Made by a program: the position numbers and the translations under genes. Source: Isurus oxyrinchus (Eukaryota). From it: 64,000 bases of DNA. A model generated the notes under the pieces. That model was not told the origin of the DNA. It saw only the letters and a list, made by a program, of their open reading frames with translations, and ran no database searches. Location: NCBI GenBank assembly GCA_026770705.1, contig JANJGN010000021.1, positions 88,970,001 to 89,034,000 of the forward strand. The letters are read 5' to 3'. Positions 29,463 to 64,000 of this stretch are shown here, piece by piece (the stretch's first letter is position 1; each line of letters begins with the position of its first letter).

Positions 29463-30672
29463 ATATGTCCTGTATATAAAAAGCAGGACAAATCCAACCC
29501 GGTCAATTACCGCCCCATCAGTCTACTCTCAATCGTCAGTAAAGTAATGGAAGGGGTCATCAACAGTGCTATCAAGCAGCACTTGCGTAGCAACAACCTG
29601 CTCACTGACACCCAGTTTGGGTTCTGCCAGGGCCACTCAGCTCCTGACCTCATTACAGCCTTGGTTCAAATGGACAAAAGAGCTGAACTCCCAAGTCAGG
29701 ATGGTGAGTGGTTTGGAGGGGAACTTCCAGGTGGTTGTGTTCCCATCTATTTGCTGCCCTTGTCCTTCTGGATGGTAGTGCTCATGGGTTTGGAAGGTGC
29801 TGTCGAAGGAGCCTTGGTAAATTCCTGCAGTGCATCTTGTAAATGTTACACACTGTTGCAACTATGCGTCGGTGGTGGAAGGAGTGCTGTTTCTGGATGT
29901 GGTGCCAATAAAGTGGGCTGCTTTGTCCTGGATAGTGTCAAGCTTCTTGAGTATTGTGGGAGCTGCACTCATTCAGACAAGTGGGGAGTATTCCATCATA
30001 CTCCTGACTTGTGCCTTGTAGATGATGGACAGGCTTTAGAGAGTCAGGAGGTGCATTACTCATCACACGATTCCTAGCCTCTGACCTGCTCTTGTAGCCT
30101 CAGCATTTATATGGCTTGTCTGGTTCAGTTTCTGGTCAATGGTAATCCCAGGATGTTGATAGTGGGGGATTCAGTGATGGTAATGCCATTGAACATCAAG
30201 AGGCAATGGTTAGATTCTCTCTTGTTGGAGATGGTCATTGCCTGACACTTGTGTGGCACGAATGTTACTTGCCACTTGTCTGCCCTAGCCTGGATATTGT
30301 CCAGGTTTTGCTGCATTTGGACATGGACTGTTTCAGTAACTGAGGAGTCGCGAATGGTGCTGAACATTGTGCAATCATCAGCGAACATCCCCACTTCTGA
30401 CCTTATGATGGAAGGATGCTTGGGAACACCACCAACTGGAAGTTCCCCTTCCAAGTCACTCAACATCCTGACTTGGAAATATATCGCTGTTCCTTCACTG
30501 ACACTGAGTCAAAATCATGGAATTTCCTCCCTAACAGCACTGTGGGTGTACCTACACCACATGGACTGCAGCGGTTCAAGGAGGCAGCTCACCACCACCT
30601 TCTCAAGGGCAGCTAGGGTTGGGCAATAAATGCTGGACCAGCCAGCCAAGCCCACACCCCCGAATGAATAAA
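29463..30672. mobile_element. L2/CR1-clade LINE with internal inversion (+ 29463-29690, - 29690-30415, + 30415-30672)
   Basis: PVYKKQDKSNPVNYRPISLLS on +; IIRSEVGMFADDCTMF on -; 3' tail on +. Confidence 0.85.
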
Positions 30673-36130: not shown

Positions 36131-39100
36131 AACTATAGAATGGATAACTATAGAATGGATAACTATAGAATGGATAACTATAGAATGGATAGCCATAGAA
36201 TGGATAACTATAGAATGGATAACTATAGAATGGATAGCCATAGAATGGATAACTATAGAATGGATAACTATAGAATGGATAACTATAGAATGGATAGCCT
36301 TAGAATGGATAGCCATAGAATGGATAACTATAGAATGGATAGCCATGGAATGGATAACTATAGAATGGATAGCCATGGAATGGATAACTATAGAATGGAT
36401 AGCTATAGAATGGATAGCCATAGAATGGATAACTATAGAATGGATAGCCATAGAATGGATAACTATAGAATGGATAACCATAGAATGGATAACTATAGAA
36501 TGGATAACTATAGAATGGATAACTATAGAATGGATAGCCATAGAACAGATAGCCATAGAATGGATAACTATAGAATGGATAGCCATAGAATGGATAGCTA
36601 TAGAATGGATAGCCATAGAATGGATAGCCATAGAAAGAATAGCCATAGAATGGATAACTATAGAACAGATAGCCATAGAAAGCATAGCCATAGAATGGAT
36701 AGCCATAGAATGGATAACTATAGAATGGATAGCCATAGAACGGATAGCCATAGAATGGATAACTATAGAACGGATAGCCATAGAATGGATAGCCATAGAA
36801 TGGATAGCCATAGAATGGATAGCCATAGAATGGATAGCCATAGAATGGATAACTATAGAATGGATAGCCATAGAACAGATAGCCATAGAATGGATAACTA
36901 TAGAATGGATAGCCATAGAATGGATAACTATAGAATGGATAGCCATAGAATGGATAGCCATAGAATGGATAACTATAGAATGGATAGCCATAGAACGGAT
37001 AGCCATAGACTGGATAACTATAGAATGGATAGCCATAGAATGGATAACTATAGAATGGATGGCCATAGAAAGGATAACTATAGAATAGATAGCCATAGAA
37101 TGGATAGCCATAGAATGGATAACTATAGAATGGATAGCCATAGAATGGATAACTATAGAATGGATAGCCATAGAATGGATAGCCATAGAATGGATAACTA
37201 TAGAACGGATAGCCATAGAACGGATAACTATAGAATGGATAGCCATAGAATGGATAGCCATAGAATGGATAACTATAGAATGGATAGCCATAGAACGGAT
37301 AGCCATAGATTGGATAACTATAGAATGGATAACTATAGAATGGTAAACCATAGAATGGATAGCCATAGAATGGATAGCCATAGAATGGATAGCCATAGAA
37401 TGGATAGCCATAGAATGGATAACTATAGAACGGATAGCCATAGAAAGGATAGCCATAGAATGGATAACTATAGAAAGGATAGCCATAGAACGGATAACTA
37501 TAGAATGGATAGCCATAGAATGGATAACTATAGAATGGATAACTATAGAATGGATAGCCATAGAATGGATAGCCATAGAATGGATAACTGTAGAATGGAT
37601 AGCTATAGAATGGATAGCCATAGAAAGGATAGCCATAGAATGGATAACTATAGAATGGATAGCCATAGAAAGGATAGCCATAGAATGGATAACTATAGAG
37701 TGGATAGCCATAGAATGGATAGCCATAGAATGGGTAACTATAGAATGGATAGCCATAGAATGGATAGCCATAGAATGGATAACTATAGAATGGATAGCCA
37801 TAGAATGGATAACTATAGAATGGATAACTATAGAATGGCTAACTATAGAATGGATAACTATAGAATGGATAGCCATAGAATGGATAACTATAGAATGGAT
37901 AGCCATAGAATGGATAACTATAGAATGGATAACTATAGAATGGATAACTATAGAATGGATAGCCATAGAATGGATAACTATAGAATGGATAACTATAGAA
38001 TGGATAGCTATAGAATGGATAGCTATAGAATGGATAACTATAGAATAGATAGCTATAGAATGGATAACTATAGAACGGATAGCCATAGAATGGATAACTA
38101 TAGAATGGATAGCCATAGAATGGATAACTATAGAATGGATAGCCATAGAATGGATAGCCATAGAATGGATAACTATAGAATGGATAACTATAGAATGGAT
38201 AACTATAGAATGGATAGCCATAGAATGGATAGCCATAGAACGGATAACTATAGAACGGATAGCCATAGAATGGATAACTATAGAATGGATAGCCATAGAA
38301 TGGATAACTATAGAATGGATAGCCATAGAATGGATAACTATAGAATGGATAGCCATCGAATGGATAACTATAGAATGGATAGCCATAGAATGGATAACTA
38401 TAGAATGGATAACTATAGAATGGATAGCCATAGAATGGATAACTATAGAATGGATAGCCTTAGAATGGATAGCCATGGAATGGATAACTATAGAATGGAT
38501 AGCCATAGAACGGATAGCCATAGACTGGATAACTATAGAATGGATAGCCATAGAATAGATAACTATAGAATGGATGGCCATAGAAAGGATAACTATAGAA
38601 TAGATAGCCATAGAATGGATAGCCATAGAATGGATAACTATAGAATGGATAGCCATAGAATGGATAACTATAGAATGGATAGCCATAGAACGGATAGCCA
38701 TAGAATGGATAACTATAGAACGGATAGCCATAGAAAGGATAGCCATAGAATGGATAACTATAGAAAGGATAGCCATAGAATGGATAACTATAGAATGGAT
38801 AGCCATAGAACGGATAGCCATAGATTGGATAACTATAGAATGGATAACTATAGAATGGAAAACCATAGAATGGATAGCCATAGAATGGATAACTATAGAA
38901 TGGATAACTATAGAATGGATAGCCATAGAATGGATAACCATAGAATGGATAACTGTAGAATGGATAGCTATAGAATGGATAGCCATAGAACGGATAGCCA
39001 TAGAATGGATAACTATAGAATGGATAGCCATAGAAAGGATAGCCATAGAATGGATAACTATAGAACGGATAGCCATAGAATGGATAGCCATAGAATGGAT

Positions 39101-40357
39101 AACTATAGAATGGATAGCCATAGAATGGATAACTATAGAATGGATAACTATAGAATGGATAACTATAGAATGGATAGCCATAGAATGGATAACTATAGAA
39201 TGGATAGCCATAGAATGGATAACTATAGAATGGATGGCCATAGAAAGGATAACTATAGAATAGATAGCCATAGAATGGATAGCCATAGAATGGATAACTA
39301 TAGAACGGATAGCCATAGAAAGGATAGCCATAGAATGGATAACTATAGAAAGGATAGCCATAGAACGGATAACTATAGAATGGATAGCCATAGAATGGAT
39401 AACTATAGAATGGATAACTATAGAATGGATAACCATAGAATGGATAGCCATAGAATGGATAACTGTAGAATGGATAGCTATAGAATGGATAGCCATAGAA
39501 AGGATAGCCATAGAATGGATAACTATAGAATGGATAGCCATAGAAAGGATAGCCATAGAATGGATAACTATAGAACGGATAGCCATAGAATGGATAGGCA
39601 TAGAATGGGTAACTATAGAATGGATAGCCATAGAATGGATAGCCATAGAATGGATAACTATAGAATGGATAGCCATAGAATGGATAACTATAGAATGGAT
39701 AACTATAGAATGGCTAACTATAGAATGGATATCTATAGAATGGATAGCCATAGAATGGATAACTATAGAATGGATAGCCATAGAATGGATAACTATAGAA
39801 TGGATAACTATAATATGGATAACTATAGAATGGATAGCCATAGAATGGATAACTATAGAATGGATAACTATAGAATGGATAGCTATAGAATGGATAGCTA
39901 TAGAATGGATAACTATAGAATAGATAGCCATAGAATGGATAACTATAGAACGGATAGCCATAGAATGGATAACTATAGAATGGATAGCCATAGAATGGAT
40001 AACTATAGAATGGATAGCCATAGAATGGATAGCCATAGAATGGATAACTATAGAATGGATAACTATAGAATGGATAACTATAGAATGGATAGCCATAGAA
40101 TGGATAGCCATAGAACGGATAACTATAGAACGGATAGCCATAGAATGGATAACTATAGAATGGATAGCCATAGAATGGATAACTATAGAATGGATAGCCA
40201 TAGAATGGATAACTATAGAATGGATAGCCATCGAATGGATAACTATAGAATGGATAGCCATAGAATGGATAACTATAGAATGGATAACTATAGAATGGAT
40301 AGCCATAGAATGGATAACTATAGAATGGATAGCCATAGAATGGATAGCCATAGAATG
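36131..40357. repeat. 15-bp satellite, about 282 units of two monomers (AACTATAGAATGGAT / AGCCATAGAATGGAT)
   Basis: Perfect 15-bp register with no indels over 4.2 kb. Confidence 0.99.
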
Positions 40358-45963: not shown

Positions 45964-46039
45964 ATGGGCAGAGAAATTAATCACCGCTTTAAATTCAGCG
46001 CCCTTTGGCTTTCCATTAATTACTTTGTTTCCATCTCTG
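45964..46039 (+). CDS. Ig-V gene copy A, exon 1 (signal peptide MGREINHRFKFSALWLSINYFVSIS)
   Basis: ATG, 25 codons + 1 nt, GTAAGT donor at 46040; phase 1 matches the V exon; same length and donor position in paralog at 57528. Confidence 0.85.
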
Positions 46040-46869
46040 GTAAGTTCTTTCACCTTTACTATGAGAACAATTCTATTCTAAGTTGGCTTGATTCTGTATG
46101 ACTGTTTTGTTAAGGGCGTTCACTCAGAGCTGGAGTTCAATCACTCACTGATTTCGTGAGCGAAGCTCTTAGTTACATAACATCTTTAGACACATTCAGC
46201 CGGGGTCCTGTGAACAGGTAGATTCACCGTCACCACCTGTCCTTCAGTTAATGTTGGACAAAGGCTTTCCTCAACTTTTACATGCAGTTGGGATTTATTA
46301 CTAAATAAACTAATCTTTCAGGAGCCTTAATTTGACGAATATTTATTTATTAAAATGTCAAATGTTCACCTCTGTGTTGCAACGTATGTAACAGTGTTAG
46401 ATTGGATAAATTGGACTTACAAAGTCTTTACTTATTGGTTATAACAATGAATTTCAATGAATTTACAATACATGAATAGGACACTTGGCCAAACAAGTCT
46501 AAACCTATAGCTCCTCACAAACTCTCCCACGTCTTTTCAGTTTATCTCACCCTATCAATGTAAACTTTTATAGTATTCCTTTCCCCCACTTACACATCTT
46601 CCCCTTAAGTGCTGCTCTCAGATCAACTACTCCAAAGTGGCAGCCAGATCCATTTTCTCACAGTCTCTTGTGCAATGCTTTTCCCCCTCTATTTGAGATG
46701 ATTTACTAGGATGACTATTTAATTGTTAATGTATAAAATGCAGCTATTAAGGTCTGAAATGTGCTGCCTGAGAAGATGGTAGAGTCAGGCACAATGGACC
46801 TAATGGCCTCATTCTGCACATTATGAATCCATTATTCTATAGCTATAAGCTCTCTGGTTGGTTGTCTTT

Positions 46870-49330
46870 CAATCATAAAATCATAGAAAGTTATTTCAAG
46901 AAGTGAGGCTGTTCAGCCTATCATGTTTGTGCTGATCGAATAGAGCTATTCAGTCTAATCCCATTTCCAGGTCTTGGTCTGTAGCCTTATAGACTACAGC
47001 ACCCCAAGTGCATATTCAATTATTTTTAAACATTATGAGCGTTTCTATCTCTAACATATTTTCAAGCATTGAGATCCAAACCCTCAATACCCTCTGGGTG
47101 AAAACATTTCTCTTCAACTCCCCACTGATCCCTCTACAAACTCCTTTAAACTTGTGTCCTCTAATAATTGACCTTTCTGCTAAGGGAAGTAGCTCATTCA
47201 TTTCCACCCCATCTAAACTCCCCACAATTTTACACTCCTCAGTTAAACCTCCACCATCCCCCTCTTCCCTGCCACACCCTCCCATCCAAACACTCTTCTG
47301 CTTTAAAGAAAACAAGCGGAGCCTATTCAATTTTTCCTCACAGCTAACATTCTCCAGCCCCAGCATCATCTTCATGAATCTCCTTTGCACCTTTTCTGGA
47401 TTGATCACACCCTGTAATGCAGTGACCAGAACTATATGCAATACTGTAGCATTGGCCTAACTAGGGCTTTATACAGTTCTAGCTGCTATTATTTCCTGTG
47501 CCTCAACTAATAAAGTATCCCATAGACCTTCTTAATCACTTGATTGACCTGTCCTGGTGTCTTCAGGAATCCATGGGCATGTACTCCAAGGTCACTCAGT
47601 TCTACACTTCCCAGTAGCAAAGCATTTCTTATCTATTCCCTTGCTTTGTTTGCCCTCCCAGACGAATTCCTCACACTTCTACAGGTTAAATTCCATTTTC
47701 TACTTCTCTGCCTGACTGGCCAGATATATTTCTGCATTTAATAAAAACAAAAAAACTGCAGATGCTGGAAATCCAAAACAAAAACAGAATTACCTGGAAA
47801 AACTCAGCAGGTCCGGCAGCATCAGCGGAGAAGAAACGTCAACTCTTTTCTTCTCCGCTGATGCTGCCAGACCTGCTGAGTTTTTCCAGATATTTCTGCA
47901 TTTCACAGCTTTCTCCCCTCACAATCAACCGCACCGCCAATTTGGTATCATCCGTAAGCAGCTTAACCATGCATCCTAATTTATTTCTAAGTATTTGATG
48001 TATGCCATAAAGCGCAAGGGTCCCTATACTGAGTCCTGCCGAATCCCATTGGAAACAGCCTTCCAGTCACACAAAGGCCAGTTGGCAACTTTCTTCCTGT
48101 CACTGAGCCACTTTTTGATCCAACATGCTACTGGCCCATAGACCCCGTGGGCTTTTAGTTTTCTGGCCATTTTACCATGTGGGACTTATCGAATCATAAA
48201 ATAGTGACTGCACTAAAGGAGGCCATTCAGCCCTTCATATCCATACTAGCTTTTTGCAACTCACCAAGCCCCACTCTGCACATTTAACCCGCAGCCCAGA
48301 AATTCTTTTTTCTCTCCAGGTCATTATCTGATTGTCTTTTGAAGGCTTTTGTTGAATCAGCCTGCACCACATCCCGGGCAGTCCATTCTATTCAGAGCCA
48401 CTTATGTTTTAGAAAGGTTTTCCCTCATGTCTCTGTTACATATTTTCCCGATTACCTTATATCAGTGTCTCCTGCTTCTCAAGCCTTCTGGCAATGGGAA
48501 TAGATTTTCCACATCTACTCTGTCCAGATCCTTCACGATTTTGAACACCTCGATCAAATTTCTTTTCAACTTTTTCTTCTGCAAGGAAAACATTCCAACC
48601 TTCTCCGATCTATCTGCCTGACTGAAATTCCTCGTTCCTAAGACCACTCTCAAAAGTATTTTCGATATTCTCTCTCTGAAAGGTGCCTCATTGTAATTAA
48701 CCTGTTTTTGTTATCTATGTCACTACTTATAGCTCCCGTATGATTCATTAACCGTTTTATTAACGTACCTGTCACCTTCAGTCATTTGAGCACCTAGACC
48801 TCCGATGCCTCTCCTGCTGCATCCCCACTGGAACTCTTTCATTTACCTCGTTCTTCCTACTGAGGTAAATTGCTTCACAATTTTCTGCATTAAATTTTAC
48901 CTACCACATGTCTGCTGACTTCACCATCCTGTTTATATCCCCTTGAAGATTCCCGCTATGCCCCTCGCACTTCAATAATCCCAAACTTTGTCACACCTGT
49001 AAATATTGAAAATGTGCCATGTACAACCAAGTCTCGGTCATTAATAAATATCAGGAAAAGCAGGGGCCTTAACGTAAGCTCGTGGGGAGACCCCACGATA
49101 TGATCTTCCTTCAGCGCAAATACAAAATGTATATAATTCACCTGTTTTCTGTAACTCAGCCCCCATTTCGTATGCTTACTGCTGCTGCGCCTTTTATTCC
49201 ATCGGCCCCAACTTTGCTGACAAGCGTGAACTTGTTAAAATCAACGTTAACTATGTCAGTCAACAACTCTCCTTGCTTCCGCCTCAAAAATAAATCCGAA
49301 CAAGTTGGTCAAGCACCTTCCCTTAACAAA
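46870..49330 (-). mobile_element. Several degenerate CR1 fragments in intron 1 of copy A
   Basis: Minus-strand EKVQRRFMKMMLGL, NVFTQRVLRVW, RNLIEVFKIVKDLDRVD, RPLLFLIFIND. Confidence 0.75.
47740..47889. mobile_element. Fold-back Penelope-like terminus with 14-bp TSD
   Basis: ATATTTCTGCATTT at 47726-47739 and 47890-47903; about 43-bp inverted arms. Confidence 0.85.
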
Positions 49331-49332
49331 TG

Positions 49333-49465
49333 AAAGCAAAATACTGCAGATGCTGGTGACCTGAGATAAAAACAGGAAATGCTGGAAAAACGCAGCAGGT
49401 CAGGCAGCTTCTGTGGAGAGAGAAACTGAGTGAATGTTTCAGCTCAAGTACCTTTCTTCAGGACG
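49333..49465 (-). mobile_element. Penelope-like terminus shared by both gene copies (also about 58472-58605)
   Basis: aaagcaaaatactgcagatgctgg...; copy B reverse complement reads CUGAAGA-A-AGGUC(CUU)GACCU-GAAA-CAUU. Confidence 0.8.
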
Positions 49466-49713
49466 GTTTTATTTCCCTGAACAAATCCTTGCTGACTGTC
49501 CGTGATTCAATCGGTGTCTTTCTAATTGCCGATTGATCCTGTCCCACAGATTTTCTTTCCAGTCAAGTGTCTTTTTTGCTGATGCTGCAGGTATTTATTT
49601 TTTATTTGAAACCAATGCGGTGTTTTATAACCAGCCTCCTGTGTGCAAACTGTGACTCGGCATTTAAACTGTTCCTTCCCAAAGCTGATTCCTTGTTTTT
49701 GGTGTTGTTGCAG

Positions 49714-50106
49714 CATCTGAGAGCGGTGTTACTGTGAGGGTCCAGCAGAGAGAATTGAAAGAGACCGTGACCCAATCTGTCCTTCTCCCTGTCTCCTACT
49801 CCACACTCACACCCTACTCCGCCTTAAAGATGCAGTGGCGTCTGTTCCCCAGAGAAATCCCATTTATGACACTGACCCGATCAAGCTGCTCCCGACACCC
49901 TGACAGACCCGGTTATAACTGTTCAGATCGCACGGAGACCGCTCCTTCCAACCGGCACCGAGTTCACCTCTACCCGGGGAATGGATCCTTGTTGCTGCGG
50001 GATTTACAGCCCAGTGACAGCGGCGTCTATGTGATATCTGTTTATGCTTTTGGTGAGAATGCAGCCAGGGAAGACATTGTGACTTTAACCGTCTATAACC
50101 AGACAG
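49714..50106 (+). CDS. Ig-V gene copy A, exon 2: CD2/CEACAM/HEPACAM/VSTM5-type V-set domain
   Basis: Acceptor ttgttgcag, 393 nt phase 1-1, donor GTAAGA; SVLLPVSY...QW...RVHLYPGNGSLLLRDLQPSDSGVYVISV...VTLTV. Confidence 0.93.
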
Positions 50107-50150
50107 GTAAGAGCTCAAAAAAAATATATATATAAGATATATATATATCT

Positions 50151-50181
<31 letters not shown>

Positions 50182-50402
50182 AGAGCTCACACTGTTTTTA
50201 TCGCATTATTCCTCGGTGCTGTTTGTTTGTTAATAAATGAACATGTTTCAACTGCACCTTCCTTGTCCCTGTCGCTTCGAGTTGAATTGAATAATGTGAA
50301 CAATTTGATAAAGAATTATTAACTTGTTTTTTGAATCTAATGGAGTGGGCGGTGGGAGTTTGAATGGTGTTGTGGTAATGTCACTAGTGATCTGGAGCCC
50401 CA

Positions 50403-52818
50403 GGACTGGAAAACCGCTAATATAAGGCTCTTGTTTAAGAAGGGAGTGAGGCAAAAGACGGGAAATTACAGGCCGATTAGCCTGCCTTCGGTCGTTGGTA
50501 AGATTTTAGAGTCCACTATTCAGGATGAGATATCAGAATACTTGGAAGTGCGTGATAAAATCGGGTAAAGTCAGCATGGTTTCATGAAAGGGAGGTCATG
50601 CCTGACAAGTCTGTTAGAATTCTTTGAGGAATTAACGAGTAGGTTAGACAAAGGAGAGCCAACGGATGTTATCTACTTAGACTTCCAGACAAGGTGCCAC
50701 ACAGGAGGCTGCTCAGTAAGATAAGAGCCCATGATGTTAGAGGCAAGGTACTAGAATGGATAGAAGATCAGGGACACCCAGGTCCACTCCTCCATCACCC
50801 CCTACTCCTCAACCCCCACCTATGGCACCTCCCCATGCCCATGCAAAGGATGCAACACCTGCCCCTTCACTTCCTCTCTCCTCACTGTCCAAGGGCCCAA
50901 ACACTCCTTTCAAGTGAAGCAGCATTTCACTTGCATTTCCCACAACTTAGTCTACTGCATTCGTTGCTCCCAATGCAGTCTCCTCTACATTGGAGAGACC
51001 AACCTTAAACTGGGTAACCCCTTTGCAGAACACCTGCAGTCTGTTCGCAAGAATGACCCACACCTCCCTGTTGCTTGCCATTTTAACACTCCACCCTGCT
51101 CTCTTGCCCACATGACTGTCCTTGATTTGCTGCATTGTTCCAGTGAAGCCCAACGCAAACTGGAGGAACAGCACCTCATCTTCCGACTAGGCACTTTACA
51201 GTCTTCCGGACTGAATATTGAATTCAGCAACTTTAGATCTTGAACTCCCTCCTCCATCCCCACCCCCTTTCTGTTTCTTCCCCCATCCTTTTGTTTTTTC
51301 CAATAATTTATATAAATTTCTTTTCCCACCTATTTCTATTATTTTTCAATCTTTTATGCCCTGCTAGTTTTTCCACCCCACCCCAACTAGAGCTGTACCT
51401 TGAGTGCCCTACCATCTATTCATAATTAGCACATTGGTTTAGATAATATCACCACCTTCAACACCTCTGTGTTCTTTTGTTTCTTCTGTGACATCTTCTG
51501 AATATCTGCTCCTATCACTGCTTGCTTGTCCCTACAACCACACCACCCCCACCCCCCCACTACTCTTCCGCCTCCCCCCCCCCCCCCCCCCCACCTTAAA
51601 CCAGCTTATATTTCACCCCTATCCTTATATTCATTCAGTTCTGTGGAAGGGTCATGAGGACTCAAAATGTCAACTCTTTTCTTCTCCGCTGATGCTGCCA
51701 GGCCTGCTGAGGTTTCCAGGTAATTCTGTTTTTGTTATGGATAGAAGATTGGCAGTCTGGCAGGAGGCAGAGTGGGGATAAGGGGGTCCTTCTCAGGATG
51801 GCGGCTGGTGACTCGTGGACTTCTGCAGGAGTCAGTGTTGGGACCACAAATTTTCACTTTATACATTAATGATCTAGATGAAGGAACTGAGGGCATCCTG
51901 CTAAGTTTGCAGATGATACAAAGATAGGTAGAGGGACAGGTAGTACTGAGGAGGTGGGGAGGCTGCAGAAGGATTTGGATAGGTTAGGAGAATGGGAAAA
52001 GAAGTAGCAGATTGAATACAACGTGGGGAAGAGTGAGGTCATGCACTTTGGTAGGAAGAATAGAGGCATAGACTATTTTCTAACTGTGGAGAGAATTCAT
52101 AAATCTGGAGTGCAAAGGGACTTGGGAGTCCTAGTCCAGGATTCTCTTAAGGTTAACTTGCATGTTGACATGGTAGTTAGGAAGGCAAATGCAATGTTGG
52201 CATTTTTTACGAGAGGTCTAGAATATAAAAGCAGGGATGTGCTGCTGAGGCTTTATAAGACTCTGGTCAGGCCACATTTCGAATATTGTGAGCAATTTTG
52301 GGCCCCATTTCTCAGTAAGGAGAGGGTCCAGAGGAGGTTCACGAGAGTGATCCCAGGAATGAAAGGCTTAACATATGAGGAACGTTTGAGGACTCTGGGT
52401 CTACACTTGATGGAGTTCAGAAGGATGAGGGGAATCTGATTGAAACTTACAGAATACTGAAAGGCCTGGATAGAGTGGATGTGGGGAAGATGTTTCCATT
52501 AGTCGGAGAGACTGGTACACGAGGGCACAGCCTCAGAGTAAAGGGAAGACCTTTTAGAACAGAGATGAGGAGAAACTTTTTTAGCCAGAGAGTGGTGAAT
52601 CTATGGAATTCATTGCCACAGAAGGCTGTGGAGGCCAGGTCATTGAGTGTATTTAAGACCGAGATAGATCGGTTCTTGATTGGTAAGGGGATCAAAGGTT
52701 ACGGGGAGAAGGTGGGAGAATGAGGATGAGAAACTTATCAGCCATGATTGAACGGCGGAGTAGACTTGATGGGCTGAATGGCCTAATTTCTGCTCCGTTG
52801 TCTTATGGTCTTATGGTC
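50403..52818 (+). mobile_element. CR1 LINE in intron 2 of copy A, inserted inside a tRNA-SINE (head about 50350-50402, body about 52819-53112)
   Basis: NYRPISL, LDFQ, KFADD, FFSQRVVNLWNSL, tail tcttatggtcttatggtc; SINE B-box ggttcaaatccc resumes after it. Confidence 0.9.
50769..51736 (+). mobile_element. Penelope-like element (GIY-YIG end + 3' UTR) with 13-bp TSD
   Basis: NLVYCIRCSQCSLLYIGET GIY-YIG motif; ATGGATAGAAGAT at 50756-50768 and 51737-51749; site empty in copy B (about 59830). Confidence 0.93.
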
Positions 52819-53161
52819 AATGCCCATGGGACACAGGTTCAAATCCCACCATGACGGCAAGTGGAATTTAAATTCAATTAATAAAATCTGAAATAAGTAA
52901 CGGTGACCACGAAACTATTCTCCATTGCTCCAAAATCACATGTGGTTCACTAATGCCCTTTAGGGAAGAGAATTTGCCAATCTTACCTGGTCCTTTCGAC
53001 ATGTGACTCCAGACCCACACAGCAATGATGTTGCCTCTTAAAAGCCCCAGCGAGAATTCAAGCGCAGTTAGGGATGGGGAACGAATACTGGCGCCCGCAT
53101 CCCACGAAATATTAATTTAGAAAAAATGAAGTTTTTCTAAGTGTCAAAATTCTTGTTGCAG

Positions 53162-53297
53162 ATTCTGAGACCCCTCCCCCGAACGTCTCGGAGCGAACGG
53201 ACACCCCCAGAGATCTCCCGAGCACCGAGCCGCTGACCTGCTCCGTCTGACCATCTTTGGCGGTTTCAGTGTGCTCGGGGCCTGTCTGTACTTGTGT
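53162..53297 (+). CDS. Ig-V gene copy A, exon 3 (stalk DSETPPPNVSERTDTPRDLPSTEPLTCSV*; overlapping TM frame ADLLRLTIFGGFSVLGACLYLC)
   Basis: Acceptor ttcttgttgcag; phase-1 frame stops at 53248-53250; TM lies in another frame; GTAAGT at 53298; conserved in copy B. Confidence 0.65.
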
Positions 53298-53453
53298 GTA
53301 AGTCGGAGATACAGACAGAACCGACAGCGGCAAAACAACACACACACAGCCGGACATGGAGATGGTTCGTGCTGTTTCTCCAGGGTTTCTGCCGGTCTTG
53401 CCTCGACTTTCGGGAGAGTGGGAGATCTCCGCTCCCTCTTCTCCTCTCCCCAG

Positions 53454-53537
53454 GACATTTTCTCCATTTTGAACACTTTTGTGAAACCCGCCTGCGGAAT
53501 CCCAGCTACAGTCCCAGCGCTCCAGACCTCAGTGTGA
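53454..53537 (+). CDS. Ig-V gene copy A, candidate exon 4 (DIFSILNTFVKPACGIPATVPALQTSV*)
   Basis: Strong acceptor ccctcttctcctctccccag; phase 0, in frame with the TM; equivalent 61554-61637 in copy B. Confidence 0.35.
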   Translation, partial: DIFSILNTFVKPACGIPATVPALQTSV

Positions 53538-54237
53538 ACTGGGGAGATGGCTCCTCACGGCACATCTCCGATAGGAATTCTAGTCCTGTCTTCCGCACAC
53601 ACCATTTGGAAATTGCGCATCCCCGCCCTTTGATCTCTTTCCCACAGCCTTTCACTGGATTCACCGCCCCCAAGCATCCCCACCACCGCCACCCCCCCCA
53701 CCTCCGCCGCCACCCAAACCCCCCACCGCCGCGGCTGTTCGTCTTTTCTGGGCCATTCTCCCCGACCGTCAGTTGCTGCAGTTTGTATAAATCACAGCTT
53801 ATTGGCTTAGTGAGTGTGAGTTGACACATTCACCTGCCGTTTTTGTTGATCACTTGCACCTTCTACAGCTGAACTTCAAACTGAGAAAGAACAAATTCAT
53901 CCTCACTTAATGCGAAATATGTTCAGCAAATTAAATCCGTGATAATTAAGTTCGGGTTTGGTCCCGTCACTGCTGAATGAACATTGGCGCGCAGCCAGTG
54001 GGCAAAGTGAGGGCAGAAATAATCACTGGAAGGGATTAAGTGGACAGGAGCAACTAAAATTTACACCTTTCACAATCTCAGGACGCCCCAGGGCCTTTCG
54101 CCCGCAGTAAAGTAGATTTAAAATGTAGTGGCCGTTGTAATGTCAGGAAACGCCAAATGCAGTTCGTGCAGAACAAGATTCCAGGAATAATAAAATAATC
54201 CTGCCATTCCAGCAATTATTAAGGTGAGCATTTCTTA

Positions 54238-56625
54238 GACAAAAGCAAAAAACTGCGGATGCTGGAAATTCAAAACATAAACAAAAATGCCTGGAAAACC
54301 TCAGCAGGTCTGACAGCATCTGCGGAGAGGAATACAGTTAACGTTTCGAGTCCGTATGACTTTCAACAGAACTAAGGAAAAATAGAAAAGTGGTGAAATA
54401 GAAGCTGAGTTAAGGGTGGGGGGGTGGGGGATGGTTCAAGTAGAGCTGGATAGAGGGCCAGTGATAGGTGGAGATAACCAGAAGATGTCATAGACAAAAG
54501 GAAAAAGAGGTGCTGAATGTGGTGATATTATCCAAGGAATGTGATAATAGGTGACAATGAGGGTAGAAAGCAGGACGAGCAAGGTTCAGAAAGGCCTAGT
54601 GGGGGTGGGGTGGGGGGAAGGGATCGAAATAGGCCAAAAGTAGAGATAAAACAACGGATGTAAATACATTTAAAAGTAATGGAAATAGGTGGGAAAGAAA
54701 AATGTATATAAATTATTGGGAAAAGGGGGTATCAGAAAGGGGGTGGGGATGGAGGAGAGAGTTCATGATCTAAAATTGTTGAACTCACTATTCAGTCCAG
54801 AAGGCTGTAAAGTGCCTTGTCAGAAGACGATGTGCTGTTCCTCCAGTTTGTGTTGAGCTTCACTGGAACAATGCAGCAGGCCAAGGACGGACATGTGTCA
54901 TGGGAGCAGGGTGGAGTGTTGAAATGACAATGCGACAGGGAGGTCTGGGTCATGCTTGTGGACAAACCAAAGCTGTTCTGCAAAGTGGTCACCCAGTCTG
55001 CGTTTGGTCTCTCCAATGTAGAGGAAACCTCAACAAAAACAGAATTACCTGGAAAAACTCAGCAGTCTGGCAGCATTGGCGGAGAAGAAAAGATTTGACG
55101 TTTCGAGTCCTCATGACCCTTCGACAGAACTTGAGTTCGAGTCCAAGAAAGAGTTGAAATATAAGCTGGTTTTAGAGGAAACCTCCTTGGGAGCAGCGAA
55201 TGCAGTAGACTAAATTGAGGGAAGTGCAAGTGAAATGATGCTTCATTTGAAAGGAGTGTTTGGGCCCTTGGAGAGTGAGGAGATGGGAAGTAAAGGGGCA
55301 GGTGTTGCACCTTCTGCGGTTGCAAGGCAAGGTGCCATGGGAGGGGTTTGTGGTGTAGTGGGTAATGAAGTAGTGGACCAGGGTGACCGGAGGAAATGAT
55401 CCCTGCGGAATGCCGCCGGGGTGGGTGAAGGGAAGATATGTTTGGTTTTGGCATCACGTTGAAGTTGGCGGAAATAGCGGAGGATCATCCTTGGAATGCA
55501 GAGGCTGGTGGGGTCATAAATAAGGACGAGGAGGACCCTATCATGTTTCTGGGAGGGAGAGGAAGGTGTGAGGGTGGATGCGCAGGAGCTGGGCTGGACA
55601 CGGTTGAGAGCCCTGTCAAACACTGTGGGTGGAAAACCTCGGTTAAGGAAGAAGGAACTGTTTTTGAAAGAGGCATCATCAGAAAAGAGATGAAAGAGGT
55701 GAAGGAACTAAGGGAATGGGATGGAGCCCTTACGGGATGCAGGTTGTGAGGAGCTGTAGTCGAGGTAGATGTTGGAGTCAATAGGCTTGTAATGAATATT
55801 GTTGGACAATCTATCACCAGAAGTTGAGACAGAGAGATCAAGGAAGGGAAGGGAAGTGTCAGAGATGGACCATGTGAAAATGATGGAGGGGTGGAAATTG
55901 GAAGCAAAATTAACAAATTTTTCCAGGTCCAGATGAGAGCATGAAGCAGCAGCGAAGCAATCATCAATGTACTGGAGAAAGAGTTGTGGGAGGAGGCAGA
56001 GTAGGAGTGGAACAATGAATGTTCAAAGCACCCCATAAAAAGACACGCATAACTGGGACTCATGTGGGTTCCCATATCCACATCTTTTATTTGGAGGAAG
56101 TAGGAGGAGTTTAAAGAGAAATTGTTCAGTGAGAGAACAAGTTCAGCCAGATGGTGGAGAGTTGTAGTGCATGGGGATTGTTCAGGCCTCTGTTCGAGGA
56201 AGAAGCAGAGAGCCATCAGACCATCCCAGTGGGGGATGGAGGTGTAGCAGGATTGGATGTCCATGGTGAAGAGGAGGCGGTTGGGGCCAGGAAACTGTAA
56301 ATGGTTGTTATGATGTAGGGTGTCAGAGGAATCACGGATGTAGATGGGAAGAGACTGGACAAGAGGGGAGAGAATTGGGTCAAGATAGGAAGAAATTAGT
56401 TCCTTGGGGCTGGGACAGTCCTGTTTGTGGATTTTGGGTAGGAGGTAGAAGCGGGCCATCCAAGGCTGGGAGACTATGAGGTTGGAAGCTGTGGAAAGAA
56501 GATCTCCAGAAGGGCTGATGTCTGTAACAGTCCTGGAAAGAATGGCTTGATGTTCAGTGGTGGGGTTCATGGTCCACGGGGAGGTAGGAGGAAGTGTCTG
56601 TGAGTTGACACAGCCTCTGCGAGTT
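54238..56625 (-). mobile_element. Penelope-like element (RT + GIY-YIG pseudogene, terminus with hammerhead fold at 54336-54373)
   Basis: ARFYLLPKIHK, LFTMDIQSCYTSIPH, MGTHMSPSYACLF; a younger PLE end is nested at 55032-55172 with TSD TAGAGGAAACCTC (55019-31, 55173-85). Confidence 0.92.
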
Positions 56626-57527
56626 ATTTCTTAGACTACATCTATGACAAGTATATCCTTCCTTAGAAAGGACACCAAAACTGTGCACAATACTCCAGGT
56701 GTGGTCTCACCAAGGCTCTATGCAATTGCAGCAAAACTTTTTGATTCCTGTATTCAATCCTCTTGCAATAAAGACCAACATATCAGCTCCCTTCCGAATT
56801 GCTTGTGGCACCTGCATGTTAGCTTTCTGTGACGAATGAACAAGGACACCCAGGTCCTTCGGACATCAACATTTCCCAACATCGTGGATGTAGATCATCA
56901 GGTCCAGGGTGTTTATCACCTTTCAGTACCATTGATTCCTCAACTATTATGTTGTTAATAATACAAATTTTTTTCAGTTCCTCATTCTTCGAAGTCCCTT
57001 GCTTCTTACTTAAAGGATGCTTTTTGATCCTTCCTCCATGAAATCAGAGACAAAGCATTTGTTTAGTTTCTCTGCCATTCTCCTTATTCTCCACTACAAA
57101 TTCTCTTGCCTCCCTCCGCCTGGTGAGCAGAGTCCCACAGGGGTCTGTTCTGGGGCCTCAAATTTTTAAAAATTACATCAATGGCTTAGATGAGGAGAGT
57201 GAAGGCACGGTAGCTACATTTGCAGATGAGAGTGATGTTAGATTAGTCTGCACATCTATAACAACCACCGTTACCAATTATAGTTAGTTCTATCTTGATA
57301 ATTTTCAAAAGATTTATTAACGTGCACATGCAAACCATGGAGCTCATCTTTCACATATTGTTAACTGGGCGCAAGGCTGAAAACGTCAGAGATACAAGTT
57401 TCCGCTTGTTGATCATTTCTGCTGCTGACTGCTCCCAACCACAGGTTTCTCCACTGAATCGCGTGTACAAAGTGGCCTCCATCTCATTCGGATCCTCTCG
57501 TTCGCTCATTACTTTGATGACGGGAAT

Positions 57528-57603
57528 ATGGGCAGAGAAAGAAGTCGCTTCTTTAAATTCACCAGCGTTTGCCTTTTCACCAGTTACTTTATTTCCACCT
57601 GTA
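57528..57603 (+). CDS. Ig-V gene copy B, exon 1 (signal peptide MGRERSRFFKFTSVCLFTSYFISTC)
   Basis: ATG, 76 nt, GTAAGT donor at 57604, phase 1. Confidence 0.85.
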
Positions 57604-58855
57604 GTAAGTCCTTTGATTTTTTACAATGAAGAAATTCTACCTGTAATTTTGCTGGACTCTGTGCGGCTATTTGCTGATGATGTTTACTCAGAGCTGAGGC
57701 TCCATCACTCACTCATCCCGCGAGTGAAGCTAAACTCATTTTATATGATCTTCAGACTCATTCAGCGAGTCTCCTGTGACCTGTCCTCTAGTTCATGTTC
57801 GGCAGATGGTTACCCTGACCCTTTAACTGTAGCCGGGATTTATTAATAACCACATCTTCAGAGGTTTTACCGTTTTGATTATTAATTATTAAATTGCCAA
57901 TGTTCTCTTCTGTGTCAAAACATGTATAATAGTGTCAGATTGGATAAATTGGTCTCTAACATGTATTTACTTAATGATTTTAACAATGAGTTTACAGCAA
58001 ATTGACGACGCAAGAGCAGGCCACTCGGCCCAACAATTCTAAGGCGAAGACTCCTCACGAACCTGCTCCAAGTCTTTTCAGTCCATCCCACCCTATCAAC
58101 ATATCCTTTGACTCCTTTCTCCCTGTGTCGCCTGACTGACCCGATAAAATTATGCCCTGTGGACTCAAGTCTGGGTCATTAATGAATATGGGGGCGGGAG
58201 GGGGAAACATTCAGAGACATCGTGATATAATGAACGTTCAATCCAACAAAAAGCAACCGTTCACATTGAATCTGTCTTTCTCTCGCTCAGTCAATTTCAC
58301 ATCTTTGCTGCGCACGTCCCCTTTTTATTCCATTGGCACCAACTTTGCTGACATCTCTGAACTTTGTCAAAAGGCTTGTTGAACCCACGTTGAAAATATT
58401 AATCACCAAACTCTCCTCATTACCTTCCCAAAAATTCCAAACAAGTTGGTCAAGCACCTACCCTTAACAAATGAAAGCAAAATACTGCGGATGCTGGTGA
58501 TCTCAGATAAAAACAGGAAATGCTAGAAAAACTCAGCAGGTCAGGCAGCTTCTGTGGAGAGAGAAACTGAGTGAATGTTTCAGGTCAAGGACCTTTCTTC
58601 AGGACGGTTTTATTTCCCTGAACAAATCCTTGCTGACTGTCTCTGATTCAATCGGTTTCTTCCTAATTGCCGATTGATGCTGTCCCACAGATTTTCTTTC
58701 CAGTCAAGTGTCTTTTTTGTTGATGCTGCAGGTGTTTATCTTTTATTTGAAACCAATGTGGTGATTTATAACCAGCCTCCTGTGTGAAAACTGTGACTTG
58801 GGATTTTAAACTGTTCCTTCCCGAAACTGATTTCTTGTTTTTGGTGTTGTTGCAG

Positions 58856-59248
58856 CCTCTGGGAGCGGTGTTACTGTGAGGGTCCAGCAGAGAGAATTGA
58901 AAGGGACCGTGACCCAGTCTGTCCTTCTCCCTGTCTCCTACTCCACACTCACACCCTACTCCGCTTTAAAGATACAGTGGCGTCTATTCCCCAGAGAAAT
59001 CCCATTTGTGACACTGACCCGATCAAGCTGCTCCCGACACCCTGACAGACCCGGTTATAACTGTTCAGATCGCACGGAGACCGCTCCTTTCAACCGGTAC
59101 CGAGTTCACCTCTACCCGGGGAATGGATCCTTGTTGCTGCGGGATTTACAGCCCAGTGACAGCGGCGCTTATGTGATATCTGTTTATGCTGATGGTGAGA
59201 ATGTAGCCAGGGAAGACAATGTGACTTTAACCGTCTATAACCAGACAG
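58856..59248 (+). CDS. Ig-V gene copy B, exon 2: V-set domain
   Basis: 393 nt phase 1-1, about 96% identical to copy A by manual count; weaker donor GTTATG. Confidence 0.92.
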
Positions 59249-59467
59249 GTTATGTTCACACTGTTTTTATCGCATTATTCCTCGGTGCTGTTTCTTAATA
59301 AATGAACGTGTTTTAACTGCACCTTCCTTTTCCCTGTCACTTCGAGTTGAACTGAATAATCTGAACACTTTGATAAAGAATTATTAACTTCTATTTTCAA
59401 TCTAATGGAGTGGGCGGTGGGGGGCTGAGTGGTGTCGTGGTAATGTCACTAGTGATCTGGAGCCCCA

Positions 59468-60917
59468 GTACTGGAAAACCGCTAATGTAACCCCCCGTTT
59501 AAGAAGGGAGTTAGGCAAAATACGGGGAATTACAGGCGGATTAGCCTGACGTCGGTCGTTGGTGAAATTTTAGAGTCCATTATTAATTATGAGATTTCAG
59601 AATACTTGGAAGTGCATAGTAAAACAGGGCAAAGACAGCATGGTTTCATCAAGGGGAGGTGATACCTGACAAATCTGTTAGAATTCTTTGAGGAAGTAAC
59701 GAGTAGATTAGACAAAGGAGAGCCAATGGATGTTATCTACCTGAACTTCCAGAAGGCCTTTGACAAGGTGCCGCACAGGAGGCTGCTCAGTAAGATAAGA
59801 GCCCATGGTGTTAGAGGCAAGGTACTAGCATGGATAGAAGACTTTCTGTCTGGCAGGAGGCAGAGTGTGGGGATAAGTGGGTCCTCCTCATGATGGCGGC
59901 TGGTGACTAGTGGAGTTCTGCAGGGGTCAGTGTTGGGATGACAAATTTTCACTTTATACATTAATGATCTAGATGAAGAAACTGACAGCATTCTGGCTAA
60001 GTTTGCAGAGGATACAAAGATAGGTGGAGGGACAGGTAGTATTGAGGAGGCGGGGAGGCTGCAGAATGATTTGGACAGGTTAGGAGAATGGGCTAAGGAG
60101 TGGCAGATGGAATACAACATGGGCGAGTGTGAGGTCATGCACTTTGGTAGGAAGAATAGAGGCATAGACTATTTTCTAAATGGGGAGAGAATTCAGAAAT
60201 CTGGAGTGGAAAGGGAGTTGGGAGTCTTCGTCCAGGATTCCCTGAAGGTTAACGTGCAGTTTGAGTCAGTAGTTAGGAAGGCAAATGCAATGTTGCCATT
60301 TATTTTGAGAGGACTAGAATTAAACCAGGGATGTGCTGCAGAGGCTTTATAAGGCTCTGGTCAGACCACATTTAGATTATTGTGAGCAATTTTGGGCCCC
60401 ATATCTCATAAGGATGTGTTGGCCCTGGAGTGTGTACAGAGGAGGTTCACATGAATGATGCCAGGAATGAAAGGCTTAACATATGAGGAACGTTTGAGGA
60501 CTCTGGGTCTATACTTGATGGAGTTCAGAAGGATGAGGGGGGATCTGATTGAAACTTAGAGAATACTGAAAGGCCTGGATAGAGTGGACGTGGGGAAGAT
60601 GTTTCCATTAAGAGGAGAGACAAGGACCCGAGGGCACAGCCTCAGAATAAAGGGAAAACCTTTTAGAACAGGAATGAGGGGAGACTTCTTTAGACAGAGA
60701 GTGGTGAATCTATGGAATTCATTGCCACAGAAGGCTGCGGCGTCCAGGCCATTGAGTGTATTTAAGACCGAGATAGATAGGTTCTTGATTGGTAAGAGGA
60801 TCAAAGGGTACGGGGAGAATGAGGTTGAGAAACTTATCAGCCATGATTGAATGGAGGAGCAGACTTGATGGGCCGAATGGCCTAATTTCTGCTCCTTTGT
60901 CTTATGGTCTTATGGTC
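59468..60917 (+). mobile_element. CR1 LINE in intron 2 of copy B, inside the same SINE (body about 60918-61212)
   Basis: Same insertion point and ends as 50403-52818, without the PLE insertion. Confidence 0.9.
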
Positions 60918-61260
60918 AATGCCCATGGGACTCAGGTTCAAATCCCACCATGACGGCGAGTGGAATTTACATTCAATTAATAAAATCTGAAATAAGTAAC
61001 GGTGACCACGAAACTATTCTCCATTGCTCCAAAATCATATGTGGTTCACTAATGCCCTTTAGGGAAGAGAATTTGCCAATCTTACCTGGTCCTTTCTACA
61101 TGCGACTCCAGACCCACACAGCAATGCTGTTGCGTCTTAAATGCCCCAGCGAGCATTCAAGCACAATTAGGGATGGGGACCGAATGCTGGCGCCCGCATC
61201 CCACGAAATATTAATTTAGAAAAAATGAAGTTTTTCCAAATGTCAAAATTCTTGCTGCAG

Positions 61261-61396
61261 ATTCTGAGACCCCTCTCTCGAGTGTCTCGAAGCGAACGGA
61301 GACCCCCAGAGATCTCCCGAGCACCGAGCCGCTGACCTGCTCCGTCTGACCATCTTTGGCGGTTTCAGTGTGCTCGGGGCCTGTCTGTACTTGTGT
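61261..61396 (+). CDS. Ig-V gene copy B, exon 3 (DSETPLSSVSKRTETPRDLPSTEPLTCSV*; overlapping TM frame)
   Basis: Acceptor ttcttgctgcag; same two-frame arrangement as copy A; GTGAGT at 61397. Confidence 0.62.
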
Positions 61397-62309
61397 GTGA
61401 GTCGGAGATACAGAGAGAAGCGACAGCGGCAAAACAACACACACACAGCCGGACATGGAGATGGTTCGTGCTGTTTCTCCAGGGTTTCTGCCGGTCTTGC
61501 CTCGACTTTCGGGCAGCGTGGGAGATCTCTGTTCCCTCTTCGCCTCTCCCCAGGATATTTTCTCCATTTTGGACACTTGTGTGAAACCCGCCTGCGGAAT
61601 CCCAGCTACAGTCCCAGCGCTCCTGACCTCAGTGTGAACTGGGGAGATGGCTCCTCACGGCACATCTCCGATAGGAATTCTCGTCCTGTCTTTTGCAAAC
61701 TCCCTCTGGAAATTGCCAACCCGCCCTTTGATCTCTTTTCCACAGACTTTCACCGGGATTCACTGTTCCCCACCCGACAACAGCCCCCCACCCCTCCCGC
61801 CTCCGCGGCTGTTCGGCTTTTCAGGTCCATTCTGCCGACCGTCAGTTGCTGTAGTTTGTATAATTCACAGCTCATTGGCTTAGTGTGTGAGTTGACACAA
61901 TGGCCTGCCGTTTATGGTGATCACTTGCATCTTCTACAGCAGAACTTCAAACTGAGAAAGAACAAATTCATCCTCACTTAATGCGAAATATGATCGGCAA
62001 ATTAAATCCGTGATAATTAAGTTCGGGTTTGGTCCCGTCACTGCTGAATGAACATTGGCGCGCAGCCAGTGGGCAAAGTGAGGGCAGAAATAATCACTGG
62101 AAGGGATTAAGTGGACAGGAATCAACTAAAATTTACACCTTTCACAATCTCAGGACGCCCCAGGGCCTTTCGCCCGCAGTAAAGTGCATTTAAAATGTAG
62201 CGGCCGTTGTAATGCCAGGAAACGTCAAAGGCAGTTCGTGCAGAGCAAGATTCCAGTATTAATAAAATAATCCTGCCATTCCAGGAATTATTTAGGTGAG
62301 CATTTCTTA

Positions 62310-62783
62310 GACAAAAGCAAAAAACTGCGGATTCTGGAAATCCAAGCAAAAACACAAATACCTGGAAAACCTCAGCAGGTCTGAAAGCATCAGCGGAGAG
62401 GAACACAGTTAACGTTTCGAGTCCGTATGACTCTTCAACAGAACTAAGGAACAATAGAAAAGTGGTGAAAGAGAAACTGAGCTAAGGTGGGTGGTGGGGG
62501 GTTGGGGGGGAGTGGTGGGGTGTTGGGTCAGGTAGAGCTGGATAGAGGGCCAGTGATAGATGGAGATAACCAAAAGATGTCATATACCAAAGGACAAAGA
62601 TGTGTTGAAGGTCGTGATATTATCTGAGGAATGTGATAATAGGTGACATTAAGGTTAGAAAGCAGGACGAGCAAGGTTCAGAAAGGCCTAGTGAGGGTGG
62701 GGTGGGGGGGGGGGAAGGGATCGAAAGAGGCTAAAAGGTAGAGATAAAACAATGGATGGAAAAACATTTTAAAATAATGGAGA
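62310..62783 (-). mobile_element. Penelope-like terminus (duplicate of 54238-54680) with hammerhead fold at 62407-62445
   Basis: Reverse complement AGUU-CUGUUGA-A-GAGUC(AUACG)GACUC-GAAA-CGUU-AACU. Confidence 0.85.
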
Positions 62784-62976
62784 TAAAAACAAAAAAACTG
62801 CGGATGCTGGAAATCCAAAACAAAAACAGAATTACCTGGAAAAACTCAGCAGGTCTGGCAGCATCGGCGGAGAAGAAAAGAGTTGACGTTTCGAGTCCTC
62901 ATGGCCCTTCGACAGAACTTGAGTTCGAGTCCAAGAAAGAGTTGAAATATAAGCTGGTTTAAGGTGTGTGTGTGTC

Positions 62977-63023
<47 letters not shown>

Positions 63024-64000
63024 CGGGGGGGGGGGGGGCGGAGAGAGAGAGAAAGAGAGAGAGAAGTGGAGGGGGGTGTGTGGTTGTAGGGACAAACAAG
63101 CAGTGATAGAAGCAGATCATCAAAAGATGTCAACAACAATAGAACAAAAGAACACATAGGTGTTAAAGTTGGTGATATTATCTAAACGAATGTGCTAAAA
63201 CGCCTCAACCCCTTCCTATGGCACCACCCCATGCCCACGCAAAAGTTGCAACACCTGCCCCTTCACTTCCTCTCTCCTCACCGTCCAAGGGCCCAAATAC
63301 TCCTTTCAAGTGAAGCAGCATTTCACTTGCATTTCCCCCAACTTAGTCTACTGCATTCGTTGCTCCCAATGTGGTCTCCTCTACATTGGAGAGACCAAAC
63401 GTAAACTGGGCGACCACTTTGCAGAACACCTGCGGTCTGTCCGCAAGAATGACCCAAACCTCCCTGTCACTTGCCATTTTAACACTCCACCTTGCTCTCT
63501 TGCCCACATGTCTGTCCTTGGCTTGCTGCATTGTTCCAGTGAAGCCCAACGCAAACTGGAGGAACAACACCTCATCTTCCGACTAGGCACTTTACAGCCT
63601 TCCGGACTGAATATTGAATTCAACAACTTTAGGTCTTGAGCTCCCTCCTCCATCCCCACCCCCTTTCTGTTTCCCCTTTCCTTTTTTTTCAATAAATTAT
63701 ATAGATTTTTCTTTTCCCACCTATTTCCATTATTTTTAAATATCTTTGAATCTTTTATGCTCCCCCAACCCCCACTAGAGCTATACCTTGAGTGCCCTAC
63801 CATCCATTCTTAATTAGCACATTCGTTTAGATAATATCACCAACTTTAACACCTATGTGTTCTTTTGTTCTATTGTTGTTGACATATTTTGATGATCTGC
63901 TTCTATCACTGCTTGTTTGTCCCTACAACCACACCCCCCCCCTCCACTTCTCTCTCTCTCCGCACCCCCCCCCCCCCCCACTCCCCCCACCCTCCCCAAC
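62784..64000. mobile_element. Young Penelope-like insertion with inverted terminal segment (- 62784-63197, + 63198-64000)
   Basis: Intact GIY-YIG frame 63310-63639; 63075-63197 is the reverse complement of about 63815-63940; hammerhead fold at 62881-62919 (-). Confidence 0.9.

Follow-up and report, generated by a model that had tools for sequence, protein, structure and literature searches.

Two tandem single-V-domain receptor genes in Isurus oxyrinchus, probable activating-type members of an apparently undescribed family of jawed vertebrates

A stretch of 64,000 nucleotides (nt) from Isurus oxyrinchus (assembly GCA_026770705.1, contig JANJGN010000021.1, positions 88,970,001 to 89,034,000; below termed the window) carries two tandem copies of a gene which encodes a single immunoglobulin V (IgV) domain. 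On balance, we favor the view that both copies represent the arginine-bearing, likely activating form within an unnamed family of jawed vertebrates, the single-IgV proteins of which likely operate as inhibitory/activating pairs, and that both copies share the same one-base frameshift ahead of the membrane anchor. The family apparently is undescribed; the kind of receptor is familiar, and its range is much wider than sharks. All positions given below are those of the window, plus strand. Published papers are cited after excerpts of their texts.

Structure of the two genes

Each of the two tandem units consists of a leader exon, a V exon and a stalk/transmembrane (TM) exon. The coding parts of the leader exons (45964..46039 in copy 1, 57528..57603 in copy 2) have 76 nt and a GT donor in phase 1. 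The leader of copy 1 resembles those of the homologs P0006 and P0017. The V exons (49714..50106 and 58856..59248) have 393 nt, are flanked by AG and GT, are in phase 1 at both ends and are open; 377 of the 393 nt are identical. The stalk/TM exons (53162..53297 and 61261..61396) are bounded by a strong acceptor and a consensus donor (GT at 53298 and 61397, respectively). That of copy 1 may alternatively be terminal by read-through, with poly-A-like signals at 53930 and 54189. A preliminary description of this DNA had proposed two units with phase-1 splicing from leader to V, and the exons, splice sites, phases and open V frames are indeed all present. It had seen no C2 exon either; homologs pass from V directly into the stalk, and a Pfam scan of 35 long open reading frames (ORFs) of the window, several of them from intron 2, returned no immunoglobulin match.

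Two segments are duplicated. One comprises the V exon with its upstream intron (49288..50108, 94.6% identical to 58430-59250), the other the repeat-rich intron 2, the stalk/TM exon and the 3' flank (51737..54687, 89.8% identical to 59830-62785). Between the copies the leaders are 75% alike at the nt level, the V and TM exons 95-96%. As far as sequences can tell, this points to a later homogenisation within the window. The family profile, run in six frames, detected only these two V exons and no third one. The family had been called expanding. This stands in a modest sense only, i.e., each of the named sharks has 1-3 loci among the matches.

Read contigs from four runs of related organisms were aligned to copy 2; repeats dominated the alignments, and no leader-V or V-stalk joint was among the matches listed. 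Three presumed-RNA runs of related organisms did not cover the leader bins of copy 2 or bins 61286-62105. One presumed-RNA contig tracks the V exon of copy 2 to the donor at 59248; with 28 unaligned bases it is below the 31-base bar and was not used as evidence.

Two tail classes

Among 140 TM-bearing family members, a count of rows which include isoforms and kin and hence are not independent, 73 possess exclusively a tyrosine motif (median tail 78 amino acids, aa) and 34 exclusively a TM arginine (median 16 aa). Both features are present in 2 members, neither in 31. A further 46 members are devoid of a TM segment. The first class is of the type of immunoreceptor tyrosine-based inhibitory or switch motifs (ITIM/ITSM): tails are long, TM segments are uncharged, and the shark tails carry LxYxxL and a TIY motif. 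In the second class an arginine is located close to the outer TM end, tails are mostly short, and a tail motif is absent. Both classes reside on contigs of equal size in catshark, epaulette shark, Mustelus and Hemitrygon, and their genes may be clustered there.

The TM frame of the window has the arginine. Aligned with three Arg-type homologs it scores 98/101, 60/63 and 53/53 (shuffle maxima 35-39); with 11 ITIM-type homologs the scores are 18-40. Judged by sequence, both window copies are of the TM-arginine type. LILRA associates with FcR-gamma through an arginine of this kind (excerpts of PMC10679719 and PMC4788293).

Short-tail members from birds (P0054, P0034, P0226 and others) have a Cys-rich TM segment with a Gln, and the Arg is situated just outside the TM, not within the membrane. 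The locus tag of a razorbill short-tail member adjoins that of an ITIM member; the two V domains are about 0.05 changes per site apart.

A frameshift ahead of the membrane anchor in the assembled sequence

In phase 1 from the strong acceptor (53162 or 61261) onwards, the frame corresponds to the stalks of homologs and then runs into a TGA at 53248-53250 in copy 1 and 61347-61349 in copy 2. In both copies the hydrophobic TM segment lies downstream of this stop in a different frame. The stalk/TM units had been considered as intact. This must be revised: with the strong acceptor in use, the frame ends ahead of the TM in either copy, owing to a one-base frameshift which the two have in common. When single-base shifts were scanned, stalk and TM aligned to catshark P0008 without gaps, best at 53215..53222 in copy 1 (C run at 53217-53219; the codon of the TM Arg, 53244-53246, belongs to the other frame) and at 61314..61321, the same site, in copy 2. 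These intervals are approximate, as two more distant Arg-type homologs place the best shift 5-15 nt upstream. For copies 1/2 the alignment scores to P0008 were 150/144 with the shift, 47/41 by read-through, and 102/100 with an acceptor 8 nt further on. The site is part of the longest stretch, 97 nt, which is identical between the copies.

As assembled, the product from the strong acceptor is a precursor of 185 aa without TM, consisting of signal, V domain and a stalk of about 30 aa. Nonsense-mediated decay needs a stop more than 50-55 nt before a junction. Because the stop is 47 nt ahead of the consensus donor, or else in the last exon, the message would likely escape decay if the frameshift is real. 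A TM exon is also missing from the gene models of the homologs P0007, P0012, P0015 and P0019.

The V domain

Both V domains match the Pfam V-set above the curated cut-off (E 6.5e-8 for copy 1 and 2.8e-9 for copy 2). The positions of the canonical B- and F-strand cysteines are occupied by Val26 and Ile107. This is in line with the preliminary description, in which both cysteines were absent, and in none of 218 family domains are both present. The cysteine pair it had noted in the C'-C'' region was also found: Cys58 and Cys69 are present in both copies. Within the family Cys58 is shared by 180 and Cys69 by 165 of the 218 domains, and 170 have at least two cysteines in this region. The sequons NCS, NGS and NQT, already listed earlier, exist in both copies, and copy 2 has NVT in addition.

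An AlphaFold2 model of the V domain of copy 2, calculated with 64 sequences, is an IgV fold (mean predicted local distance difference test score 91.2). The long C'-C'' hairpin consists of strands 51-60 and 67-75, the register of which sets Cys58 opposite Cys69. A disulfide which staples the hairpin is predicted. The register agrees with the bond proposed earlier; the pairing was read from the strands, not from an interatomic distance, and the bond itself is only inferred. Structural searches return IgV domains. The best solved match is V1 of amphioxus VCBP3 (Z 16.2, root-mean-square deviation 2.4, 124 residues aligned, 20% identity; Foldseek TM score 0.78), with myelin P0 within 1 Z (15.4). 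VCBP3 has a chitin-binding domain which this family does not have; solely the fold is shared. Among the predicted structures of the Atlas, the N-domains of VSTM5 and HEPACAM come nearest (TM scores 0.76-0.77).

Boundary and range of the family

Homologs were collected in sets of 2 and 18 named matches, 195 representatives at E <= 0.001 (150 listed) and 112 profile matches. Of 265 gathered proteins 186 score at least 85 bits on the family profile, 64 of which were used to build it; the next ones score 71 and 65. The window domains come closest to two ITIM-type proteins, one from Cetorhinus (91%) and one from Carcharodon (86%). The family is not confined to sharks as was initially thought: its named members span chimaera, sharks, rays, gar, tarpon, coelacanth, caecilian, salamander, frogs, turtles, birds and platypus. 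The bird members include full-length proteins of chicken (LOC771657) and duck. The platypus link has an E of 1.3e-5 from the window domain alone and 57 bits on a shark-only profile. A therian member was absent among the named rows, with 30 of the 150 listed representatives checked by name.

The designation as an uncharacterised, compact family of immunoglobulin-superfamily receptors was borne out. ITIM-bearing partners exist among the homologs, and a one-to-one orthologue of a characterised gene was not among the matches. In five elasmobranch/chimaera entries which were scanned (P0006, P0008, P0032, P0074 and the window exons) no C2-type family was above the cut-off. The best score of a solved structure on the family profile is 49 bits, spread over two domains. 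Database entries call the members 'uncharacterized' or give them automatic labels of the CEACAM-like or HEPACAM-like kind. A description of the family was not found in the literature searched, which comprised few subscription papers and no supplements; 12 LOC identifiers likewise led to no paper.

Several members deserve mention. P0023 (duck, labelled CEACAM5-like) and P0025 (frog) have 5-6 V domains in tandem and are devoid of C domains. More distant elasmobranch members are P0082, P0094, P0088 and P0128 from rays, which constitute a separate branch of the V tree, and P0122 and P0166 from sharks, which reside on contigs equal in size to those of the closer genes; Arg-type and Tyr-motif forms occur again. 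A bird member of Rissa (P0172/P0174) is annotated under the gene name TMLHE, and a member of the frog Pelobates (P0107) has a CRLF2/TSLPR-like cytokine-receptor domain attached. Both probably are merged gene models which hint at the neighbourhood of the family; the literature offered nothing on this point in the search made. A linkage to the major histocompatibility complex was considered as a lead: the excerpt of PMC10751288 assigns this complex to chromosome 19 in the white shark and contains nothing to place the window gene.

V domains segregate by lineage

V trees were calculated from 44 and 16 chosen rows out of 184; a VSTM5 sequence was not included. In the 44-row tree the window copies group with the ITIM genes of Cetorhinus and Carcharodon (support 100/99). 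Likewise, the catshark Arg gene groups with the catshark ITIM gene (98/80), the skate Arg gene with a skate ITIM gene (100/96), and the Arg gene of the epaulette shark with orectolobiform ITIM genes (99/95). With 16 rows, a tree in which the four shark Arg-type rows are held together was rejected by the approximately unbiased (AU) test (p-AU 1.15e-9); the grouping was fixed by TM class before any tree, and the test was run after the 44-row tree had been seen. The V domains group by lineage, not by tail class.

Because the Arg TM exon is common to these sharks, the simplest reading would be an old Arg gene, the V exon of which was repeatedly overwritten from the partner. Repeated exon shuffling would produce an identical tree. 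Segregation by lineage, as it appears here, is what one would expect if the ligand-binding domains of paired receptors are homogenised. For Xenopus CEACAM pairs, a conversion of the ligand-binding exon from one partner to the other is described (excerpt of PMC5112662).

Comparison with known receptors

As in this family, LILRA/LILRB, PIR and CHIR have long-tailed inhibitory members beside short-tailed members with Arg, and LILRA3 is soluble (excerpt of PMC10679719). These receptors contain 2-4 C2 domains (same excerpt), whereas the family presented here has one or repeated Cys-less V domains. In the excerpt of a 2014 survey (PMC4016189) no C2-only homologs of the leukocyte receptor complex (LILR/KIR-type) are reported for sharks. 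By analogy, we infer that the family works like LILR/PIR/CHIR pairs, using a Cys-less V domain of the CEACAM/CD2 kind. A secreted V domain might be comparable to soluble LILRA3.

The N-domain of CEACAMs is a Cys-less IgV, and single CEACAM N-domain chains do not exceed 33 bits when scored with the family profile. CEACAMs resemble the family in ITIM/ITSM tails and in conversion of the ligand-binding exon between partners (excerpt of PMC5112662). However, activating CEACAMs carry their own cytoplasmic activation motif (ITAM; same excerpt), whereas the short-tail members at hand carry an Arg in the TM and lack a Tyr motif, and the IgC domains of CEACAMs are absent from this family. Chicken and duck possess intact family members; according to the excerpt of PMC13278318 fowl are without complete CEACAM genes. 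Species range and activating motif both exclude an identity with CEACAMs. The CEACAM locus is situated between LIPE and BCL3, and neither of these was recognised in the window by the Pfam scan of long ORFs.

Receptors of the CD2/SLAM group share Cys-less IgV domains and ITSM-like TxYxx tail motifs with the family. They have an IgV followed by an IgC2 domain, whereas the family is without C2 domain and has partners with an Arg in the TM. In the homologs V is followed by stalk and TM and not by a second domain, which dismisses a CD2/SLAM identity; on the family profile CD48 scores 27.8 and SLAMF6 23.3 bits. TREM, CD300, NITR and SIRP receptors have the canonical B-F disulfide in their V domains and are excluded by its complete lack in the 218 family domains.

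VSTM5 consists of V plus TM, and its predicted N-domain is structurally near. In contrast to VSTM5 and HEPACAM, the family is multi-copy, has two tail classes and the extra cysteines in the C'-C'' hairpin. HEPACAM was discarded: its Atlas cluster has a second immunoglobulin domain (PF00047/PF07679 at 100%), whereas the elasmobranch family proteins which were scanned have V only. The C-terminal PF28389 of VSTM5 has no match in P0006 and P0008, using a Pfam set which may not include this model. For VSIG10L2 a single source gives an Atlas feature match of 0.94 to a cluster with PF28299 at 98%; this model was not seen in the Pfam scans, the set of which may omit it. The VSTM5 and VSIG10L2 links are leads only.

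A potential mode of action and its alternatives

By analogy with known pairs, ITIM/ITSM-type members would dampen leukocyte activation via phosphatases, and Arg-type members would signal via an ITAM adaptor, FcR-gamma or a CD3-zeta-like protein, as LILRA does. In keeping with the model, both classes may bind one ligand with the C-C'-C''-F-G face, which bears the long hairpin. Gene conversion would preserve the similarity of the paired V exons, an outcome to be expected where the inhibitory member is exploited by a pathogen. The frameshifted copies would yield the 185-aa precursor, likely spared from decay of the message, which would then be secreted. Presently, we can only speculate that the secreted product acts as a decoy. 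A decay of the copies to pseudogenes is conceivable to the same degree. Taken together, a tentative scenario is that of a paired-receptor family which is older than the split of sharks and bony fish, persists in chicken and platypus and apparently disappeared from therians. Its ligand-binding exon would have been homogenised across classes lineage by lineage, implying a long pathogen pressure on the stapled hairpin, and in Isurus the activating copies would have turned into secreted decoys.

Several points weigh against an activating member of a receptor pair at this locus. Ligand, adaptor binding, signaling and expression of the window copies are putative. The family profile found no ITIM-type stalk/tail exon and no ITIM partner in the window, and 31 of the 140 TM-bearing members fit neither tail class. 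The excerpt of the 2014 survey (PMC4016189) reports no FcR-gamma in cartilaginous fish, which is why CD3-zeta is considered as an alternative adaptor. The V exons differ by 12 nonsynonymous and 3 synonymous changes (proportions pN 0.041 and pS 0.031, a rough count), which does not discriminate between neutrality and selection. Further, the frameshift rests on one assembly, its C run lies within the identical 97-nt stretch where a systematic error would recur, and the TM frame, without an aa difference between the copies over 32 codons, also fits selection for an intact TM.

Were the frameshift an assembly error which recurs in both copies, both would be intact membrane receptors of the activating type. 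The short C run in identical surroundings and the unaltered TM frame would agree with this, as would the otherwise open leader, V, stalk and TM and their gap-free alignment to catshark P0008. We nevertheless regard an error as rather unlikely. Runs of at least 4 bases in the four intact exons keep the frame in 6 of 6 cases, a small sample. Between the copies 27 indel events, 8 of them single-base in runs, are opposed to 220 substitutions, no obvious excess of errors. A recent conversion accounts equally well for a shared frameshift. Among the named matches there is no lamniform Arg-type protein, and several other sharks likewise have the ITIM type only. Splicing might also rescue the frame. 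If a second AG, situated 8 nt downstream (first base 53170 or 61269), were used, the TM frame would be open in either copy (278 and 390 aa), and a membrane receptor with a new stalk would result. This is improbable: the second AG is a GAG right behind a strong CAG with pyrimidine tract, homolog models begin the exon in the frame of the first AG, the resulting stalk is unlike those of homologs (102/100 compared with 150/144), and the tails of the two copies differ through another frameshift.

Alternatively, the family may comprise adhesion molecules or ligands without immune function, comparable to HEPACAM/VSTM5, in which tail motifs and arginine would be incidental. The structural neighbors in the Atlas and some of the automatic HEPACAM-like or CEACAM-like names are in its favor. 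Yet Arg-TM and Tyr-motif tails are nearly mutually exclusive (both in 2 of 140), the V domains are homogenised across classes within lineages, and no match named VSTM5 was among the 2, 18 and 112 proteins found. We think there is little chance that this alternative applies, and we retain the interpretation as a member of a paired-receptor family.

The remainder of the window

Positions 1-45900 are repeat-rich. At 36135-40357 an array of about 280 units of 15 nt (90% matches by TRF), probably a minisatellite, has stop-free frames of 1431 aa (plus strand) and 1416 aa (minus strand). In the Pfam scan of the 35 long ORFs solely a reverse-transcriptase fragment (ORF 29106-30074) was detected and no neighbouring gene was recognised; short exons of other genes would escape such a scan. 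A run of 60 G at 62979-63038 possibly is a sign of homopolymer inaccuracy in the assembly.

Significance

The window copies alone matter less, as they may be decaying or mis-assembled. The family matters more. If the proposal is correct, a V-type inhibitory/activating pair common to sharks, bony fish, amphibians, reptiles, birds and platypus would rank among the oldest paired-receptor systems, since LILR/KIR-type receptors were not reported for sharks in the excerpt of the 2014 survey (PMC4016189). The CEACAM-like and HEPACAM-like labels which were assigned automatically would have to be corrected, including those in fowl without CEACAMs, and the family would be open to study in chicken (LOC771657) or catshark.

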